Shown piece by piece: positions 25,655-40,626 of a stretch of DNA of 64,000 nt. The first letter of the stretch is position 1; each line of letters starts with the position of its first letter. Origin of the DNA: a virus. Under the pieces are notes generated by a model. It was not told the origin of the DNA and searched no databases. It saw only the letters and a program-made list of their open reading frames with translations. Where the stretch lies: IMG/VR virus record IMGVR_UViG_3300040856_003015, positions 10,893 through 74,892 of that record; one strand, given 5' to 3'. The translations under genes were made by a program, and so were the position numbers.

Positions 25655-26305
25655 TTACAACGAATTCAAAAATTCGTTAAATAAGTTTAATTTATGTTCT
25701 TCTAAAACTCTTTGATCTACTAATGTATTAATTCTTCTTTTAGTTTGCTCAGCAATCTTTTCTCTCAAAATACCACCATCCCATACCCACTCCTTTCCTT
25801 CCATAATTCCAGATACAAACGCATCAGGTGCAGAAGGATCTGCTACAATATCAGCAGCAGTTGCTAGCATGAAATCTTCGCCAACTTCCTTATAACCTTT
25901 TTGGTTTTCTCTAAGTGAACCAATACCCCTAGAAGACACTCCAAGAGTTACTCCATCTTTGAGTAAAGATTCTGCAATCTTACCCATAGGAGTAGATAAA
26001 ATTTGTGCTTTACCTACAAAGTTATTACCTACTTGATTTAACTCAGTAATTTTATGTGAAACACGATCAAGATTTACAGTTGGTCCATCTGGATGACCAA
26101 GTTCTCCAAGAGCACGACCTTTTTGAACATATTGCTCATTATAACGCTTTACTTCCTTTTCCATGATTGAAAGAGGATACATTCTTCCATTTCTATTAAC
26201 ACATTCTGCTTGTAGAAATGGTCCTTTAATGTAAAGTTTTTGGTCTTTTCCAGTTCCTTCTTTAAGAACTTCTACCTTTTCGATTTCTTCTCTGATTAGT
26301 TTCAT
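25655..26305 (-). CDS. gp21: Prohead protease
   Basis: NRNGRMYP, GELGHP, VSH, GVSSRG, DIVADPSAPDA. Confidence 0.97.
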   Translation of the reverse strand: MKLIREEIEKVEVLKEGTGKDQKLYIKGPFLQAECVNRNGRMYPLSIMEKEVKRYNEQYVQKGRALGELGHPDGPTVNLDRVSHKITELNQVGNNFVGKAQILSTPMGKIAESLLKDGVTLGVSSRGIGSLRENQKGYKEVGEDFMLATAADIVADPSAPDAFVSGIMEGKEWVWDGGILREKIAEQTKRRINTLVDQRVLEEHKLNLFNEFLNSL

Positions 26306-28079: not shown

Positions 28080-28409
28080 TTAAATCCATTCTAGTTTTGA
28101 AGGATGATATCTTTTAATATCTTTTATATTTACTTGATTGTTTTTTTCTTGAATTGGGTATATATTGTGAACTATGGAACCTGGATAATCACTTTGAAGC
28201 ATTTCTCCCAATTCTCTACGAGACGGTAGTGTATAACTGTCCAATTGAAGTTCAATTCGATAAATCTGCCCTTCCCAAAGAAAGTCCGCAAAAAAACTTT
28301 TAGTTTCTTTTACATCTTCTGGGAAATCGCTTTTTACAATAATTGTCCCAACTGACGCATTGCCAGAAATATTTACAGATTCTGATAAAAAGTTTTTAAA
28401 AGTTTTCAT
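28080..28409 (-). CDS. Probable internal head protein with a capsid-targeting sequence
   Basis: N-terminus MKTFKNFLSE resembles the T4 CTS MKTYQEFIAE. Confidence 0.65.
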   Translation of the reverse strand: MKTFKNFLSESVNISGNASVGTIIVKSDFPEDVKETKSFFADFLWEGQIYRIELQLDSYTLPSRRELGEMLQSDYPGSIVHNIYPIQEKNNQVNIKDIKRYHPSKLEWI

Positions 28410-33437: not shown

Positions 33438-35090
33438 TTAATTAATATAGTCCCACATATATGACATATCACCATATTCATCAGTAAACCATCTATCACC
33501 TTCTTTATCGACAAAAGTTCCGTCCTGAGTTAATCCATCCGATATAAATCCAAAAGGAGACATATCTTGCTCTATTTGATTTTTTTGCTCTTGATAAAGT
33601 CTTTTTCTTATATCCTGATCCGTAAGTTCTTTGAAATAATCTTCATTGATCATCCAAGAGTACATAACTAAACACATTACCAAATCATCATTTCTACCTT
33701 CTTCAGCCTCGAAAGAATTTCCTTTTTGTATAAAAGTTGTTAATTCGTTTATAATATCAAAATCTTCAAATACTAATTTACTTTCTTCAATTAGAGTTTT
33801 TAAATTTAAACATCCGACTTTTTTTATAGTTTTGGACATTTTTACTCCCAACTGAACTTTTTTTCCAGAAAATCCTTGGCCCAAAACTTGTCCAGCTCTT
33901 CCTCTCATGGAAGTCATGAGTAAATTTGAATACTCTAATTCATAAAATAATCCCGCAGCAACCTGATCACCAACATCATTAACCTCACATAAAACATGTG
34001 CTTTATTATATGATAAAGCAACATTTCTTATAATTTGTGGGAAAAATAGTGGTCTTATTTGATTATTTCTATACTTTGCAACAACTTTATGTGGAAATTG
34101 TGATACATCAAAAACAACAAATGCGGAGAAATCTTTTTCTACTCCTCTAGCAACATCGACAGTTACTGCATATGTATGATCATCTACAGGATCTTCATAC
34201 ACATCTAACCCAGCATTTGATGTTATTGGATTACTAAAGACTAATGAATTCAATTTTGGACCAGAAATCAGTGTATCTGCAGATCCTAAAAACTGGCACT
34301 CAAATTCTTGTCTCCATTGTGCTTCAGATGTGTTTGCAATAGTAGTCTTTTTGAAGTTTTCATCTCTACCAGGAACATCTGTCCAATGGACCTCTAATGG
34401 TACATATTCATTCTTCCCCTTTTGGGCATCACTCCATAGTCTATAGAAATGATTCATTCCAAATGGAGTTGAAACAACTATAACTTTAGATGAACTACCG
34501 GAAGTAATAGTTGGATATACCGAACTGAAGAAATTATCTGCTACCTGATTTGGTACGAAAGCAAATTCGTCTAGGAATATTATATTGTAAGTACCACCAC
34601 GAACTGATGATGCAGAAGTTGATGATGCAAATATTTTGGATCCATTTTCTAATTCTAGAGAACCTTTATTCCATGATAATATACCCTGTTGCAACCATCT
34701 TGGTAGATTTTCATACCCAGTTTGTAATCTAGCAAGCAAATCTCTTGCAGTATTTGCTTTGTTTGCTAGAATAGCAACATTAACATTATCATTAAATATT
34801 GCATAGTGTAGTAGATATGAAACTACTGTGGTTGATTTTCCACTCTGTCTCGGTAACTTACATATATTAAATCTATTATCATGAAAACTTCGTAACATAT
34901 TTTTTTGGAATGGGTACATAGTAAAAGGTTGTAACCCATGATCCAAAGTAACAATTTTTATGTAATTATTGGCAAAATATACTGGATCTCTGGAACAATT
35001 TATAAATTCCTCAATTTGGTTTCCACTAAATTCATGTTTTGTGTTTGCCTTTTTTAGTAACGGATTACCGAGGTAAAATTCTTCAGACAT
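33438..35090 (-). CDS. gp17: Terminase large subunit
   Basis: PRQSGKST, IFLDEFAF, STPFG, DVARG, DDLVM; no intein. Confidence 0.97.
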   Translation of the reverse strand: MSEEFYLGNPLLKKANTKHEFSGNQIEEFINCSRDPVYFANNYIKIVTLDHGLQPFTMYPFQKNMLRSFHDNRFNICKLPRQSGKSTTVVSYLLHYAIFNDNVNVAILANKANTARDLLARLQTGYENLPRWLQQGILSWNKGSLELENGSKIFASSTSASSVRGGTYNIIFLDEFAFVPNQVADNFFSSVYPTITSGSSSKVIVVSTPFGMNHFYRLWSDAQKGKNEYVPLEVHWTDVPGRDENFKKTTIANTSEAQWRQEFECQFLGSADTLISGPKLNSLVFSNPITSNAGLDVYEDPVDDHTYAVTVDVARGVEKDFSAFVVFDVSQFPHKVVAKYRNNQIRPLFFPQIIRNVALSYNKAHVLCEVNDVGDQVAAGLFYELEYSNLLMTSMRGRAGQVLGQGFSGKKVQLGVKMSKTIKKVGCLNLKTLIEESKLVFEDFDIINELTTFIQKGNSFEAEEGRNDDLVMCLVMYSWMINEDYFKELTDQDIRKRLYQEQKNQIEQDMSPFGFISDGLTQDGTFVDKEGDRWFTDEYGDMSYMWDYIN

Positions 35091-35096
35091 AATAGA

Positions 35097-35558
35097 TTAC
35101 CATTTTACTTTATTTGCCCAATAAGCTGCAGACATTTTTCCTTTTTTGATATTTTTTGCGTGTCTTGACTTAAATTTTTCACGTCTCTTGGCATATTCTT
35201 TTGACTCACCTTCTTTTTTAGGAGAACCTTTTACTCCAAGTTGACCAAACCTTATAATTTTTTCTTTACCACCCTCACATGCTTTTACTATGTGGGATTT
35301 TCCAGATTCTCCAGACCCATGTGCTTGTACTTTAGGTTGATTACATTTCATCTTATTTTTATCAACAGATTCATTTTTTACTCTTAAATCTGTATATAAT
35401 TTTCCTTTACCATCAACTGATGGTATGAATGCACCATATGGTCCAGATTTTTTGTCTTTATCGTCAATAAATCCATCAATATTCGAATCACTGCGTTTAA
35501 TAGATTTTTTTATTTTATTGAGAAGTTCCTTCTTAGATCTAGGAGGAACTTCTATTTC
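35097..35558 (-). CDS. -1 frame extension of the upstream gene: EF-hand-like loop plus DUF5754-like basic domain (includes the track ORF 35097-35351)
   Basis: Frame open from the slippery site to 35097; DSNIDGFIDDKD; IRFGQ...KRREKFKSRH...SAAYWANKVKW; no SD before ATG 35351. Confidence 0.7.
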   Translation of the reverse strand, partial: EIEVPPRSKKELLNKIKKSIKRSDSNIDGFIDDKDKKSGPYGAFIPSVDGKGKLYTDLRVKNESVDKNKMKCNQPKVQAHGSGESGKSHIVKACEGGKEKIIRFGQLGVKGSPKKEGESKEYAKRREKFKSRHAKNIKKGKMSAAYWANKVKW

Positions 35559-35564
35559 TTTTTT
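35521..35564 (-). promoter_or_regulatory. Programmed -1 ribosomal frameshift signal
   Basis: A_AAA_AAG at 35564-35558, 4-nt spacer, perfect stem AGAAGTTCCT/AGGAACTTCT. Confidence 0.78.
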
Positions 35565-36877
35565 TCTTCCTTTATTTCAACCCCCTCACCAATTGTATTA
35601 TTATTCATGAGATAATTTTTAGATTTTGAGTTTTGAACCTGTACGAGAGGTTGATTAGGATCAAGATCTGCAGTATTATATGTAACTACTCTTGATCCAG
35701 GATAAACTTTTTGGACTTCGGCAGTAACTTCTTTTCTATTTGGCATTCTAACTTGTGGGAAGAATAATCTCATAGAGTAATATTTTCCCCTCCAAGATAT
35801 CACTACTGATATTATATTTCCATTTTGAGCTTGGAGGCGAACTGATTCACTGACATTTTTTTTCTTATACCCCTTTGCCTTTTTCACTCCCTTTTTAACT
35901 GGTACGCAATTTGGAACTTCTTTCCCATTCTTCATTTTCATACCAACTTGAGTATATCCTTTCCAACAAGGATTTTCTTCTTCAATAGAACCTGGCTTTA
36001 TCAGATCTATAAACTCTGCATAAACATTTCCATCACAATCTCTTACAATATTACTTTCATTTTTAGACTCAACTTTTTTTAATTTGCTATAATAATTTGG
36101 AACTTCATCTAAATGTTGTAGGGCAGTTATTCTTGCATCTTTTCTATTTGATGTATGCTCTAATTCAACTTTAATGCCCATTTCCAATTGATTTTTTATA
36201 ATATCTAAAGAAACTCCATGTTTTTGTGCTATTTCTTTAGGTGATTTATATGGTTGAACTGGACCTTTTGGGTCTTTTTCTTCACCCATTGGGCAGGACT
36301 CTTTATTATGCACTGGACAATATTTACCTTTTTTGGTATGATTACAAGATGATTCCTCCATCATCTTCTTAGATAAAGGTTTGCATACTTTATCTGTCTT
36401 GCACCAGTACATTCCCTTTCCACACTTTTCTTCACCAAGAATTTTTTCAACTAAAGAAACCTCCTCTTTATTAAATTTTGGGGGAAGACTAACCTTGGAC
36501 ACTTCTCTTTGCCTAAGTTTTTCTGCTTTGGGACCAAGAGCTTTTGCAGCTTCTGGTCCTAGTGCCTTTGCCCCAGTTCTTGGAGCAATTTGACTCCCTG
36601 TACTTGTTAAAATTTTAGTTCTAGGTATGCGATTACTTTTAGTATTTTCATCGATACTTTCATCGCTCTGAAGATATTCTGAAGCGGTATCAATGTAATC
36701 CGCAGCTTTAGTTATTTTAGATTGAACCCATGCTGGGAGTTGTTGATTTCCGGATTTAATTTGTTTCCTGAGATTTTTAATTGATCTCTCTATTGAATCT
36801 AATTCATTTCTAGCCATATATCCTTCATCATCTTTCTTTTTTCCTGAAGAAATTTCTTTATGATCTTCCCTAATCAT
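35552..36877 (-). CDS. Modular head-associated protein (putative internal polyprotein) with a DUF5661-like module
   Basis: Short modules separated by Glu-rich junctions; GIKVELEH...HLDEVPNYYSKL; CWKGY...PNCVP. Confidence 0.75.
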   Translation of the reverse strand: MIREDHKEISSGKKKDDEGYMARNELDSIERSIKNLRKQIKSGNQQLPAWVQSKITKAADYIDTASEYLQSDESIDENTKSNRIPRTKILTSTGSQIAPRTGAKALGPEAAKALGPKAEKLRQREVSKVSLPPKFNKEEVSLVEKILGEEKCGKGMYWCKTDKVCKPLSKKMMEESSCNHTKKGKYCPVHNKESCPMGEEKDPKGPVQPYKSPKEIAQKHGVSLDIIKNQLEMGIKVELEHTSNRKDARITALQHLDEVPNYYSKLKKVESKNESNIVRDCDGNVYAEFIDLIKPGSIEEENPCWKGYTQVGMKMKNGKEVPNCVPVKKGVKKAKGYKKKNVSESVRLQAQNGNIISVVISWRGKYYSMRLFFPQVRMPNRKEVTAEVQKVYPGSRVVTYNTADLDPNQPLVQVQNSKSKNYLMNNNTIGEGVEIKEEKKK

Positions 36878-36906: not shown

Positions 36907-37686
36907 TTAAAAACCAAGATTTTTAGATCGAACATAATCTAAATCATATGAAGTATATGTTATTGGAATATCTTCTTTTCCATATGGATTTTTTGTTGGA
37001 CTACAATATCTCCACTCATCACCCCATTTTTCATACATATATGAAAAATTTTCTTGATTAATTTGATCTAGTCTTTCTTTTAGTAATGGATCAGTTTTTG
37101 TTGTCTGACTTCCATGCTCATAATATTGATCTTTATTACCTAGTCCGTGGTAATAGTTACTTTCCAAAGACAAAATTTTCTTTATTGGTCTATGTATGAA
37201 TCTCATAATATAATCTGCATCTTCACAATATGCTGGATATAAATTTTCATCAAAAAGACCAAATTTTGATATAACCCAGTCTTTAATCAAAAAAAGATCC
37301 CAACTGCCAACTCCAAAATCTCCAGGATTGCCATGAATTAACCCAATTTCATTATCTTGAGCATAATCATACATTTCTTTTAAAAGTCCTATCCCAAAAG
37401 AAACGTCATCATTTACTATAATCCAATAAGGACAGTTCATATAACATTTTATAATTAAATTCCATGCACCAGAAACACCTATATTTCTAGGCAGATTACA
37501 AACGGTAATTTTTTTTATAAATTTATGATTAATTTTCTTTATTTTTTCTAGGTCATCATCTAATTCACCTTTTCCATTATTATTAATAATCACAAATTCA
37601 TCTACTGGATAATCAACACTCATAATTAATCTCATTACCCAGAATGAACTATTAACAACTGCTGTTCCAATAACAGGTATACTCAT
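36907..37686 (-). CDS. GT-A (family 2-like) glycosyltransferase
   Basis: VIINN, NIGVSGAWN, IVNDD, GLFDENLYPAYCEDADY. Confidence 0.85.
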   Translation of the reverse strand: MSIPVIGTAVVNSSFWVMRLIMSVDYPVDEFVIINNNGKGELDDDLEKIKKINHKFIKKITVCNLPRNIGVSGAWNLIIKCYMNCPYWIIVNDDVSFGIGLLKEMYDYAQDNEIGLIHGNPGDFGVGSWDLFLIKDWVISKFGLFDENLYPAYCEDADYIMRFIHRPIKKILSLESNYYHGLGNKDQYYEHGSQTTKTDPLLKERLDQINQENFSYMYEKWGDEWRYCSPTKNPYGKEDIPITYTSYDLDYVRSKNLGF

Positions 37687-38930
37687 AGTAATCCCAACAT
37701 ATAGTGCTCAGATTTTTTAACTTTATCACTAATACATGTCATCTTGTTTAAAATTTCTTTATCCACCAAATCTGGGTGAACCCACCAATCTTCGTAAGAT
37801 CTCCATTCATCTGGAGATATATTATTAACAACTCTCACGTACCCGTATGATTCTAAGTATTTTTTAGATTTTTCCTGGAATTGTTTTGTTTGATCACAAT
37901 AATAATCATGTTCATAAGTAATTACAGCAAATTTAAATTGTTCAAATGGGATACTAAGAAGTATTTTATAAGTTACATCTGGAGGATCACAATCTAATTG
38001 TAGATAGTCTATTTCATTATAAAAACCAAATCCTTGCAAAAAGTTTTCATAATTTATTCTAGTAGCATCTTTTAATAAACAAAGGTTTTTTCTTTCTTTT
38101 GAAAATATTTCTACAAATTTTTCATCAATATCTAAAGAAACTCCATCCCATCCAAATTCAGTCTCTAGAAGTGCAGTGTTATTTCCATAAAATGGATTTG
38201 CTGATCCAATTTCTAGATATTTTCCTCTTTTTTTGCCATTCAACATAGAGAGGACGAACATATCCTGATAAGATTCAGAATAATTTCTTTCAATTGACTC
38301 TAAACCTGGGAATTTGAACTTATAAGAATCATACTTAGATTTATTATAATTTGTTAATTCTCTAGAGGTAGATGTAATCTTACAAAGATTTTCTATAGAT
38401 TTCGATCTATATTCTTCATTAATATCTTTACTTTGTACTAACTCTATAAAAGTTTTTCTAGAATCGTCACATAGTCCACACCACCAACCAGATACTGCAC
38501 GCATGAATTTTAGACTAAAAAATCCGGGATAATCTAATTTTGTCCTCAGATTTTCGGAATTTGGGTCTGATACATCTAATCCTATGCTTGATATAAGATA
38601 ACACTCATGCCAATCAGATGTAAATTCGTAGAATCTACTCATATAAAAATATGCTTCAGGCCTTTTAGGGCATGTCGCTATAGCATGTTGTATTAATCCT
38701 TTTACAGTGAAGTTTCTAGATCCTTGTTTACTAAAGCATGTTGATGCACGCAGAAGACCCTCATATTTTAACAAATCATTATCTGTTCTTTCAGCAGACC
38801 TTAAATAATATGAAACTGCAGACGCTAACTGTCCAATATTATCATAATATAAGGCAAGGTCAAAATTTACTTCAGCATTATTTGGGTCAAAAACATATTT
38901 TTTTATTAATTCATTTATTTCAGTTTGCAT
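37683..38930 (-). CDS. TPR-repeat protein with a C-terminal FkbM-like SAM methyltransferase domain
   Basis: N-terminal TPR helices (PKRPEAYF); SESYQDMFV, YLEIGS, IDYLQLDCD, ITYEH. Confidence 0.75.
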   Translation of the reverse strand: MQTEINELIKKYVFDPNNAEVNFDLALYYDNIGQLASAVSYYLRSAERTDNDLLKYEGLLRASTCFSKQGSRNFTVKGLIQHAIATCPKRPEAYFYMSRFYEFTSDWHECYLISSIGLDVSDPNSENLRTKLDYPGFFSLKFMRAVSGWWCGLCDDSRKTFIELVQSKDINEEYRSKSIENLCKITSTSRELTNYNKSKYDSYKFKFPGLESIERNYSESYQDMFVLSMLNGKKRGKYLEIGSANPFYGNNTALLETEFGWDGVSLDIDEKFVEIFSKERKNLCLLKDATRINYENFLQGFGFYNEIDYLQLDCDPPDVTYKILLSIPFEQFKFAVITYEHDYYCDQTKQFQEKSKKYLESYGYVRVVNNISPDEWRSYEDWWVHPDLVDKEILNKMTCISDKVKKSEHYMLGLL

Positions 38931-39909
38931 AAAGAAATTCCTCTATTACTTTTTCTGGGGTTTTTAATAAGTATGCACAATTGTCTTGGAAACCAAAAGT
39001 TATTAAGAAATCGTTATTGTATTTTGCCATACCTATGCAAAATTCTACATGACCAGACATTATTGAAAAATCATTGGAATATTTTACCATATTCCAATTT
39101 TTATCCCATAAAATTAATCTATGTCTATAAATTGCATCTTTTCTACCCACTTCGCTATTAAATAAATCAACTTCATGAGTTATTGCGAGATAGTGATCAT
39201 TCCAAGAAACTACCTGAGATCCTCCTCTAAGGTCTCTAGGGAGACTTATATGGTCTGTTAAAACCTCTGTAGTACATATATTAGTTATTGGATCTACTTT
39301 TACCAACTCAGTAGGATTAGACCACTTAATGTAATGATATGGAATATCTAAAACAGGCATCCAATTTTTTTCACAATATGAATCTGGATATTTTGGTGGG
39401 GGAATTCTTAATCTAGAAACTTCTTCTACTGAATTATCTGTAACAATTATTTCAGAAAGTTCCATTCTTCCCTGACCATTTGTTGTAGTATCCCTCCTTA
39501 CACCAGATATATACAACTTTTCATCCCATTTAAAAATTCTAGCATCTTCTAGACCCACAAAATCCCACATAGGTTCGTATGTGTCAAATTTAGAAGTGTC
39601 TATCTTATTATATCTTACAACATTAAAATTGTTATCTAGTTCACAATAATAATTATCTGTCCTTAAGTACATATCATGCTCTGGATGAACATATGTCAGA
39701 GGACCATATTGATGCTGATATAATTTTTGTTCTGAATGATAAAATGTATAATTTACATGCCTAATATTTACTAAAATTTTTCCACCATCTATAAAAATAG
39801 ATGGATTCATTATACCAGTACCTGATGTTATATTACCAGGAATTATTAGTGGATGTATGTCTCCACCACATTCTAAAGATCTTCTAGAAAGAGAATATAA
39901 AAATTCCAT
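38920..39909 (-). CDS. Beta-propeller glycoside hydrolase/phosphorylase-like protein (GH130/DUF377-like)
   Basis: NPSI, GLEDARIF, EKNWMP, RGGS, EFCIGM. Confidence 0.7.
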   Translation of the reverse strand: MEFLYSLSRRSLECGGDIHPLIIPGNITSGTGIMNPSIFIDGGKILVNIRHVNYTFYHSEQKLYQHQYGPLTYVHPEHDMYLRTDNYYCELDNNFNVVRYNKIDTSKFDTYEPMWDFVGLEDARIFKWDEKLYISGVRRDTTTNGQGRMELSEIIVTDNSVEEVSRLRIPPPKYPDSYCEKNWMPVLDIPYHYIKWSNPTELVKVDPITNICTTEVLTDHISLPRDLRGGSQVVSWNDHYLAITHEVDLFNSEVGRKDAIYRHRLILWDKNWNMVKYSNDFSIMSGHVEFCIGMAKYNNDFLITFGFQDNCAYLLKTPEKVIEEFLYAN

Positions 39910-40167: not shown

Positions 40168-40626
40168 CTATTTATTCATGTTAGAATCGGATTTAATTTG
40201 AGATTTTAAAAATTTAGATAATTCCGCTGTAGATCCAACAAATAATGCATTGGTTACATTAGTCTGGTTTGAGGTTTTACTCTTTTCCCCAGTTAAATCA
40301 TTAAGTTTTTTTTGAACATCTAATAATTTTTCTGTTGCATCAGTAACGCTTTTAATCAGTTGCCCTGCAACTTCATATGCTCTAGGTTGTTCAGTTTCTT
40401 GTGCTAATTCTAAAACTCCATTTAATGCTTCTTGCCCCCTTTCTATTATAGAATATAAATTACCTCTAGTATAATTGTAATCTTTTTCAAGATCACTATT
40501 TTGTTTAGTTACATTCATGGTATCATTTTTTACTATTTGTGTTTCAACTTTCTCAATATTTTCCATATTATTCTCAGCATAATCAGTATCAAAAATAGAA
40601 TTTAATTCTTCGAATTTATCTGCCAT
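40168..40626 (-). CDS. gp16: Terminase small subunit
   Basis: DYNYTRGNL, PRAYEVAGQL, FVGSTAEL. Confidence 0.93.
   Translation of the reverse strand: MADKFEELNSIFDTDYAENNMENIEKVETQIVKNDTMNVTKQNSDLEKDYNYTRGNLYSIIERGQEALNGVLELAQETEQPRAYEVAGQLIKSVTDATEKLLDVQKKLNDLTGEKSKTSNQTNVTNALFVGSTAELSKFLKSQIKSDSNMNK

Follow-up and report, generated by a model that had tools for sequence, protein, structure and literature searches.

Introduction

Programmed -1 ribosomal frameshifting in dnaX comes in two layouts. In one, the shift truncates the protein, the -1 frame meeting a stop one codon later; in the other, found in a minority of bacteria, a 0-frame stop stands directly after the site and the shift extends the protein (review by Atkins et al., PMC5009743). 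For a 5' Shine-Dalgarno element that stimulates -1 shifting, the same review gives a published spacing of 9-14 nucleotides (nt). T4-like phages are reported, in work cited in the PRFect paper (PMC10885494), to make their tail-chaperone pair without frameshifting. Here we analyze a stretch of 64,000 nt (the window) covering positions 10,893-74,892 of IMG/VR record IMGVR_UViG_3300040856_003015, a contig fragment of 74.9 kilobases (kb) whose source is, by its sequence, an uncultured Kyanoviridae-like, T4-like marine myovirus. A late gene between its two terminase genes has the heptamer A_AAA_AAG near its end, and we think it probable (roughly 0.8) that a real programmed -1 ribosomal frameshift takes place there.

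The initial annotation of this DNA had proposed such a shift, with a hidden coding segment and products of 441 and about 593 amino acids (aa). The proposal is supported because an open reading frame (ORF) without a start codon is under selection, the heptamer is kept in relatives, split relatives all continue in the -1 frame, a natural protein (P0004) has the predicted junction, and the A7 run at the site is reproduced in independent assemblies. Our full-text literature searches turned up no frameshift described for this locus or for T4-like cyanophages; the initial annotation likewise knew of none at this locus in T4-like phages.

The Proposed Frameshift Site in the Window

The elements at the site are the following.

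35552..36877, minus strand: 0-frame ORF of 441 aa, the short product (from the ORF list)
35581..35587, minus strand: G-rich, Shine-Dalgarno-like GAGGGGG, 16 nt 5' of the heptamer
35558..35582, minus strand: conserved connector GGTTGAAATA nnn GAR nnA AAA AAG, encoding (E/G)VEIxExKK; one match in the window, 0 expected
35558..35564, minus strand: slippery heptamer A_AAA_AAG, the proposed -1 shift site; phase X_XXY_YYZ confirmed
35552..35554, minus strand: 0-frame stop TAG, one codon past the heptamer (from the sequence)
35521..35553, minus strand: 3' stem-loop with a perfect stem of 10 base pairs (bp), arms 35553-35544 and 35530-35521, and a 13-nt loop
35370..35558, minus strand: -1-frame segment without a start codon, a conserved linker domain of 63 codons (EIEVPP...NIDGFID...GPYGAFIPSVDGKGKLYTDLRVKNE), recognized by its ratio of nonsynonymous to synonymous substitution (dN/dS)
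35097..35351, minus strand: basic C-terminal module, phrog_7595 (E 1.8e-27), called as a separate ORF of 84 aa plus stop

The 441-aa ORF ends GAA GAA AAA AAG AAA TAG, and the heptamer lies in a run of seven A residues (A7, 35565-35559). Four nucleotides (AAAT) separate it from the stem-loop, whose folding energy of -13.8 kcal/mol (z = -3.67) was equaled by 0 of 200 dinucleotide-shuffled sequences. From 35576 the -1 frame has no stop until 35099-35097, i.e., for 159 codons from stop to stop and for 153 codons after the slip, and continues into the 84-aa ORF. The two predicted products are 441 aa and 440 + 153 = 593 aa long, the latter with the junction EEKK-EIEVPPR. These elements (the end of the ORF, the in-frame heptamer, the spacer, the stem, the G-rich element and the open -1 frame across the gap) had all been listed in the initial annotation, and each was found as described.

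How unusual is this arrangement? The window has ten in-frame A_AAA_AAG sites among 20,094 codons. At nine of them the -1 frame closes after 1-12 codons, and only the site at 35564-35558 combines 153 open -1 codons with a 0-frame stop one codon away. Because it is unique among the ten in both respects, the arrangement exceeds chance.

The Heptamer in Relatives

Relative loci are labeled L### and homologous proteins P#### below. We collected 55 unique homologous junctions from a scan of IMG/VR, in which only the peptide E-E/G-V-E-I-x-E-x-K-K was fixed and any synonymous codon was allowed, and from loci found by protein and linker searches. The pattern NNA AAA AAG is present in 54 of the 55. The codon before the two Lys codons encodes any of seven amino acids (A, S, V, G, E, L or T), yet it ends in A. 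When 44 in-frame sequences are compared codon by codon, the junction Lys codons are AAA in 44/44 and AAG in 44/44, while the AAA/AAG counts at other invariant Lys positions of the same sequences are 26/14, 23/20, 37/7, 28/16, 32/12 and 16/28; Gly, Val and Ser codons are also free to vary. The constancy extends upstream. GTT GAA ATA and the third-position G of the second codon are invariant in 44/44 in-frame relatives, and the codon equivalent to the position of GAGGGGG is only GAG or GGG in relatives, always with G as its third base. The block GTTGAAATA (35573-35581, minus strand) is nucleotide-invariant not only in the 44 in-frame relatives but also in the split junctions inspected, with Val, Glu and Ile codons varying elsewhere; it puts a TGA in the -1 frame five codons 5' of the heptamer. 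Since the junction codons are invariant while codons for the same amino acids vary elsewhere, the connector is, on this codon evidence, constrained at the nucleotide level beyond what the protein needs.

The junctions come in two layouts: 41 of the 55 are in-frame fusions with the same heptamer, and 14 are split. The split junctions represent about seven sequence types, which differ in sample of origin and in upstream protein. All 14 continue in the -1 frame and none in the +1 frame. A 0-frame stop directly follows AAG in 12 of them and comes one codon later in the window and in L205. What follows the split varies: the linker and phrog_7595 (window, L205, L206), the linker and DUF6321 (L004, L099, L208), DUF6321 alone (L007, L097) or phrog_7595 alone (L030, L035, L121, L124, L132, L189). 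Hairpins of 6-10 bp and of unrelated sequences begin 3-9 nt past the heptamer in nine of 12 split sequences, including the window; a conserved downstream hairpin was looked for at the in-frame junctions and was not found. Conservation of heptamer plus hairpin had been suggested as a check on the initial annotation; the heptamer half of it stands, and the hairpin half extends to most of the split sequences and stops there.

Most in-frame junctions read AAG TCT GAR, at which a -1 shift would stop after one codon (GTC TGA). The Ser codon TCT is used at 41/44 in-frame junctions, versus 24/44 at other Ser positions. Homologs that are simple in-frame fusions without the signal had been named in advance as speaking against recoding. 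The 41 in-frame homologs do not refute frameshifting, because the heptamer is retained in them, in most cases followed one codon on by a -1 stop, and they so match the layouts known from dnaX (PMC5009743). There are also relatives with DUF6321 fused in frame and no heptamer, among them the cultured phages B3, DSL-LC02 and S-SM2, and the split layout was not found among the cultured phages of the phage collection. At two loci from different metagenomes (L008:4190-4260 and L031:2310-2380), the junction between core and DUF6321 has a heptamer of the lambda type, G_GGA_AAG, with the 0-frame stop six codons further on. DUF6321 follows in the -1 frame, and a -1 shift at this heptamer restores colinearity with the in-frame protein of S-SM2.

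A Coding Segment without a Start Codon

The peptides encoded by the segment between the two called ORFs include EIEVPPR and SDSNIDGFIDDK, and the pattern of this linker domain across relatives is …NIDGF[IV]D…GPYGAFIPSVDGKGKL…VKNE. In the window, none of the first 69 codons of the -1 frame after the slip is ATG, GTG or TTG. In relatives, TTG and GTG codons are scattered through the conserved domain without sharing positions, and no start is conserved. A profile-based search gave few linker loci; scans with back-translated patterns gave five metagenome and two viral loci. The linker recurs in the same -1 arrangement in L004/L209, L099, L205, L206/L207 and L208. Pairwise dN/dS is 0.05-0.35, with synonymous divergence (dS) of 0.5-1.7, among the window, L205, L206, L208, L004 and L099. 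Because dN/dS is low while dS is high, this comparison indicates that the segment is coding and under purifying selection at the protein level.

A natural protein joins the two parts. P0004 (653 aa) holds the linker in frame, with the junction ...EEVEKK-VETPPS..., matching the one predicted for L004 and L206 from a -1 slip at A_AAA_AAG. Public gene calls for the linker ORF are "hypothetical proteins" of 136-146 aa. Because they begin at internal, non-conserved TTG codons, they are, to judge from the alignment, truncated gene calls; the upstream context of these calls and of P0004 is taken from the similar loci L205-L209 only. One further protein, P0022 ("MATKR..."), was considered as a case of an independent ATG start and set aside: the equivalent codon in its close relative L205 is TTG, and the ATG is probably a gene-caller start. 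Nine loci (L050-L058) that we had taken for in-frame carriers of the linker have, on inspection, only the N-terminal block and the module.

Alternative Explanations

The alternative that survives best, unlikely as we consider it, involves no recoding. The locus would be a broken ancestral fusion gene or two ordinary genes, only a 441-aa and an 84-aa protein (from ATG 35351) would be made, and the 200-nt linker would be left untranslated. Gene callers do report two ORFs, most relatives are plain in-frame fusions, and the module is a stand-alone gene in many podoviruses, e.g., SIO1. In short split relatives the ATG of the module lies 14 nt past the heptamer, in some with AGG-type motifs near. 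However, the breaks are always in the -1 frame and never in +1, always at the heptamer, and have a stop within 0-1 codons. The linker is under strong purifying selection in the -1 frame, with its synonymous sites near saturation, even though it lacks a start codon. ATG 35351 has no Shine-Dalgarno sequence in front of it, as the initial annotation had said, and in L121 and L189 the module ATG lies inside the hairpin.

Transcriptional slippage is less probable again. RNA polymerase would add one A within the A7 run, and normal translation of the A8 transcripts would give exactly the same EEKK-EIEVPP product. Slippage of this kind is known on A/T runs in bacteria, but the cited cases have runs of about nine (PMC5009743), and most relatives of the window have only A6 (GCA AAA AAG, GTA AAA AAG, GGA AAA AAG). 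The terminal G of the heptamer and its codon phase are invariant, neither of which polymerase slippage needs. A single RNA-library contig, spanning 35441-36000, covers the site; it has no difference from the window and no gap, and reads A7, though contigs hide minor species. We also looked at k-mer shares in RNA libraries as evidence for expression and dropped them, DNA carry-over being possible.

The least probable reading, a sequencing or assembly indel by which a true A8 genome with a simple 593-aa fusion gene was recorded as A7, has in its favor that homopolymers are error-prone on some platforms and that one extra A restores the frame, but it is very unlikely because independently assembled contigs agree exactly: those of three DNA runs from three studies (2018, 2024, 2025; depth 8-47) are identical at the site with 0 gaps, 14 seawater DNA runs (13 studies) contain every sampled 31-mer of the window, and the layout recurs at 13 further split junctions sampled elsewhere, some of them with A6. 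Support for the A7 run, a check named with the initial annotation, thus comes from the contigs of these three runs and of the RNA library.

Several observations weigh against programmed frameshifting. The invariance of GTTGAAATA is left unexplained by it. Three of the 12 split sequences (L004, L030 and L124) have no convincing hairpin. The G-rich element, at 16 nt upstream, lies beyond the 9-14 nt range, and its bases also encode conserved residues; a stimulatory role at this distance is uncertain. The initial annotation had called the whole arrangement a dnaX-type signal, which holds for the heptamer and the 3' hairpin and is uncertain for the 5' Shine-Dalgarno element. Contigs can hide a minority of A8 molecules, and the short split variants, with a module ATG so near the heptamer, could be two ordinary genes. 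Finally, A_AAA_AAG is highly shift-prone only in cells where one tRNA-Lys(UUU) decodes AAA as well as AAG (PMC5009743), and shifting here would depend on the tRNA-Lys set of the host.

Proposed Mechanism

In our proposal, programmed frameshifting would proceed as follows. Ribosomes translating the 441-aa ORF would reach A_AAA_AAG, where the hairpin and the nearby 0-frame stop probably slow them. In a fraction of them, both Lys tRNAs would slip back by one base and pair with AAA AAA; translation would go on for 153 codons in the -1 frame, and the shifted product of 593 aa would consist of the first 440 residues, the 63-residue linker and the very basic module of 84 residues. Ribosomes that do not shift would terminate one codon on, giving the 441-aa form. 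The site would in this way set the ratio of core protein with and without its C-terminal add-on.

A wider reading is possible, to which we give slightly less than even odds. The connector of about 25 nt, G[AG]G GTT GAA ATA nnn GAR nnA AAA AAG, might be a portable recoding cassette that joins interchangeable cores and add-ons in marine phages, in both layouts. If so, the shift would truncate the product at the 41 in-frame junctions and extend it at the 14 split ones. Small indels that leave the slip site intact would let a lineage switch from a protein that mostly has the add-on to one that mostly lacks it, or back. The two dnaX layouts would then have a phage-wide counterpart, one tied to the shuffling of modules in capsid-packaged proteins.

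The Core Protein and Its Add-ons

The 441-aa core is a mosaic of an N-terminal helical block, DUF5661 (residues 213-272, Pfam E 3.7e-13), Cys-rich blocks and a C-terminal beta domain. Its slot lies between gp16 and gp17, and homologs share this slot in cyanomyoviruses; some of them are annotated as virion or structural proteins in isolates.

The phrog_7595 module has 666 representative clusters and is nearly always found at the extreme C-terminus of its host proteins, which range from 92 to 2276 aa. It had been described as DUF5754-like. This could not be upheld: DUF5754 (PF19058) gives no match to the module at E <= 1 and to none of 44 module homologs at E <= 0.01, although a neighbor cluster in the feature space of the Atlas has 46% DUF5754 members. 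The module by itself has no Pfam, PDB or fold match, and for linker plus module no function came from Pfam, a PDB sequence search or Foldseek. An AlphaFold2 (AF2) model has a mean predicted local distance difference test score (pLDDT) of 60.8, the module part being moderately confident and the linker below 50. Weak matches to DUF6321 (E 0.003) occur in two of the 44 phrog_7595-module homologs. The two interchangeable add-ons, phrog_7595 and DUF6321, may be distantly related.

The initial annotation had also seen an EF-hand-like loop in the linker. The peptide DSNIDGFIDDKD is indeed present, but no EF-hand family matches: the 156-aa -1 product that includes it has no Pfam family at E <= 1, and the loop departs at two positions from the PROSITE EF-hand pattern. 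D-x-N-x-D-G is kept in the linker relatives, and a DxDxDG-type loop is possible in this domain.

Every DNA run contains dozens of short, unrelated contigs whose match is confined to the final 40-50 nt of the module (KMSAAYWANKVKW-stop; 35097-35144, minus strand), beyond which they diverge. These matches indicate that the 3' end of the module is common, in near-identical nucleotides, to many phage genomes in the same samples.

What might the extended protein do? Prohead proteases of the T4 type cleave at the motif L/I-x-E. The connector peptide VEIKE (V-E-I-x-E) fits the short form I-x-E, and a Peptidase_S77 prohead protease is encoded in the window. The most likely functional frame, as far as these sequences suggest, is that the 593-aa protein would be packaged in the head as cargo and cleaved at I/L-x-E by the prohead protease of the gp21 type. 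The module might then end as a small basic protein inside the capsid after cleavage, dosed by the frameshift. Elsewhere in the window, a 109-aa ORF (28080-28409, minus strand), flanked by the portal and prohead protease genes, starts with MKTFKNFLSE, which resembles the T4 capsid-targeting sequence MKTYQEFIAE. Its homologs (MKTYKQFISE..., MKSFNQFLSE...) stand directly after the gene of the frameshift family in L012 and in Synechococcus phage DSL-LC02.

Genome Context

The window has a G+C content of 30.6%. The genes of the region are all on the minus strand, in a T4-like context, and the neighbors of the frameshift gene are listed here.

40168-40626, minus strand: small terminase (Pfam DNA_Packaging)
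38920-39909, 37683-38930 and 36907-37686, minus strand: three genes after the small terminase
33438..35090, minus strand: large terminase (gp17-like; Terminase_6N and Terminase_6C), immediately 3' of the module ORF
25655-26305: prohead protease (Peptidase_S77)

Beyond the large terminase come genes in the sheath, tube and portal positions (the last with a Portal_T4 match), the prohead protease, a scaffold protein and the Gp23 major capsid protein. The capsid protein of the window has 81% identity to the capsid proteins of Synechococcus phages B3, B23 and their relatives. No tRNA genes were found in the window.

The large terminase is uninterrupted in the window. In many relatives, among them L001 (Synechococcus phage B3), L003, L013, L028, L040-L044, L047 and L066, it is interrupted by inserts of about 0.4-1.5 kb at two or three places that recur, which follow residues 86-90, 207 and 264 or so. 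The insert of B3 is in frame and intein-like, giving a terminase of 880 aa.

Comparison with Known Systems

The mechanism proposed here is textbook; what is new is the gene family, the interchangeability of its add-ons and the presence of both layouts together. Our analysis adds a well-supported recoding event to the T4-like cyanophages and corrects a systematic annotation error, in which arbitrary internal TTG codons gave rise to the calls of 136-146 aa. It places a very widespread, uncharacterized basic module, together with DUF6321, at the C-terminus of a probable virion or head-cargo protein, in a position where its dosage would be controlled. The two layouts, found together at a single invariant heptamer, form a natural series in which the co-evolution of frameshift efficiency and gene architecture can be followed.

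Among known systems, the internal proteins of T4 (IPI-III) and other gp21-processed head cargo resemble the present case in their T4-like context, with a Peptidase_S77 gene nearby and I-x-E in the connector. The add-ons are likewise small and lysine-rich, the neighboring ORF 28080-28409 has a targeting-like start, and some homologs in isolates carry virion or structural annotations. In contrast, the T4 proteins have no sequence homology to the 441-aa/593-aa protein, which lacks a clear 10-residue targeting sequence, and frameshifting is not known for them.

The frameshifts of late phage genes, of the lambda G/GT type, also occur in a late gene and in the last codons of the upstream ORF. They yield a minor, longer product with an extra C-terminal domain, at a site kept across divergent relatives, and the lambda heptamer G_GGA_AAG itself is used at the equivalent junction in L008 and L031. 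Unlike them, the locus described here belongs to the interval between small and large terminase genes in a T4-like phage, it encodes no capsid protein and no tail chaperone, and its add-on is interchangeable (phrog_7595 or DUF6321, with or without the linker).

The bacterial gene dnaX, with its tau/gamma -1 frameshift at A_AAA_AAG in E. coli, differs in what it encodes, a clamp-loader subunit rather than a mosaic protein of the late, virion type. The Shine-Dalgarno-like element is 16 nt upstream here versus 10 in dnaX, the spacer before the stem is 4 nt here, and the in-frame relatives have no conserved hairpin. The likenesses are in the signal and its outcome. The heptamer A_AAA_AAG is identical, a simple stem-loop follows a few nucleotides downstream (10 bp here versus 11 bp in dnaX), and the two products share an N-terminus and differ in their C-terminal part. 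The in-frame relatives read AAG TCT GA where dnaX reads AAG AGU GA, and the split relatives have the reversed layout.

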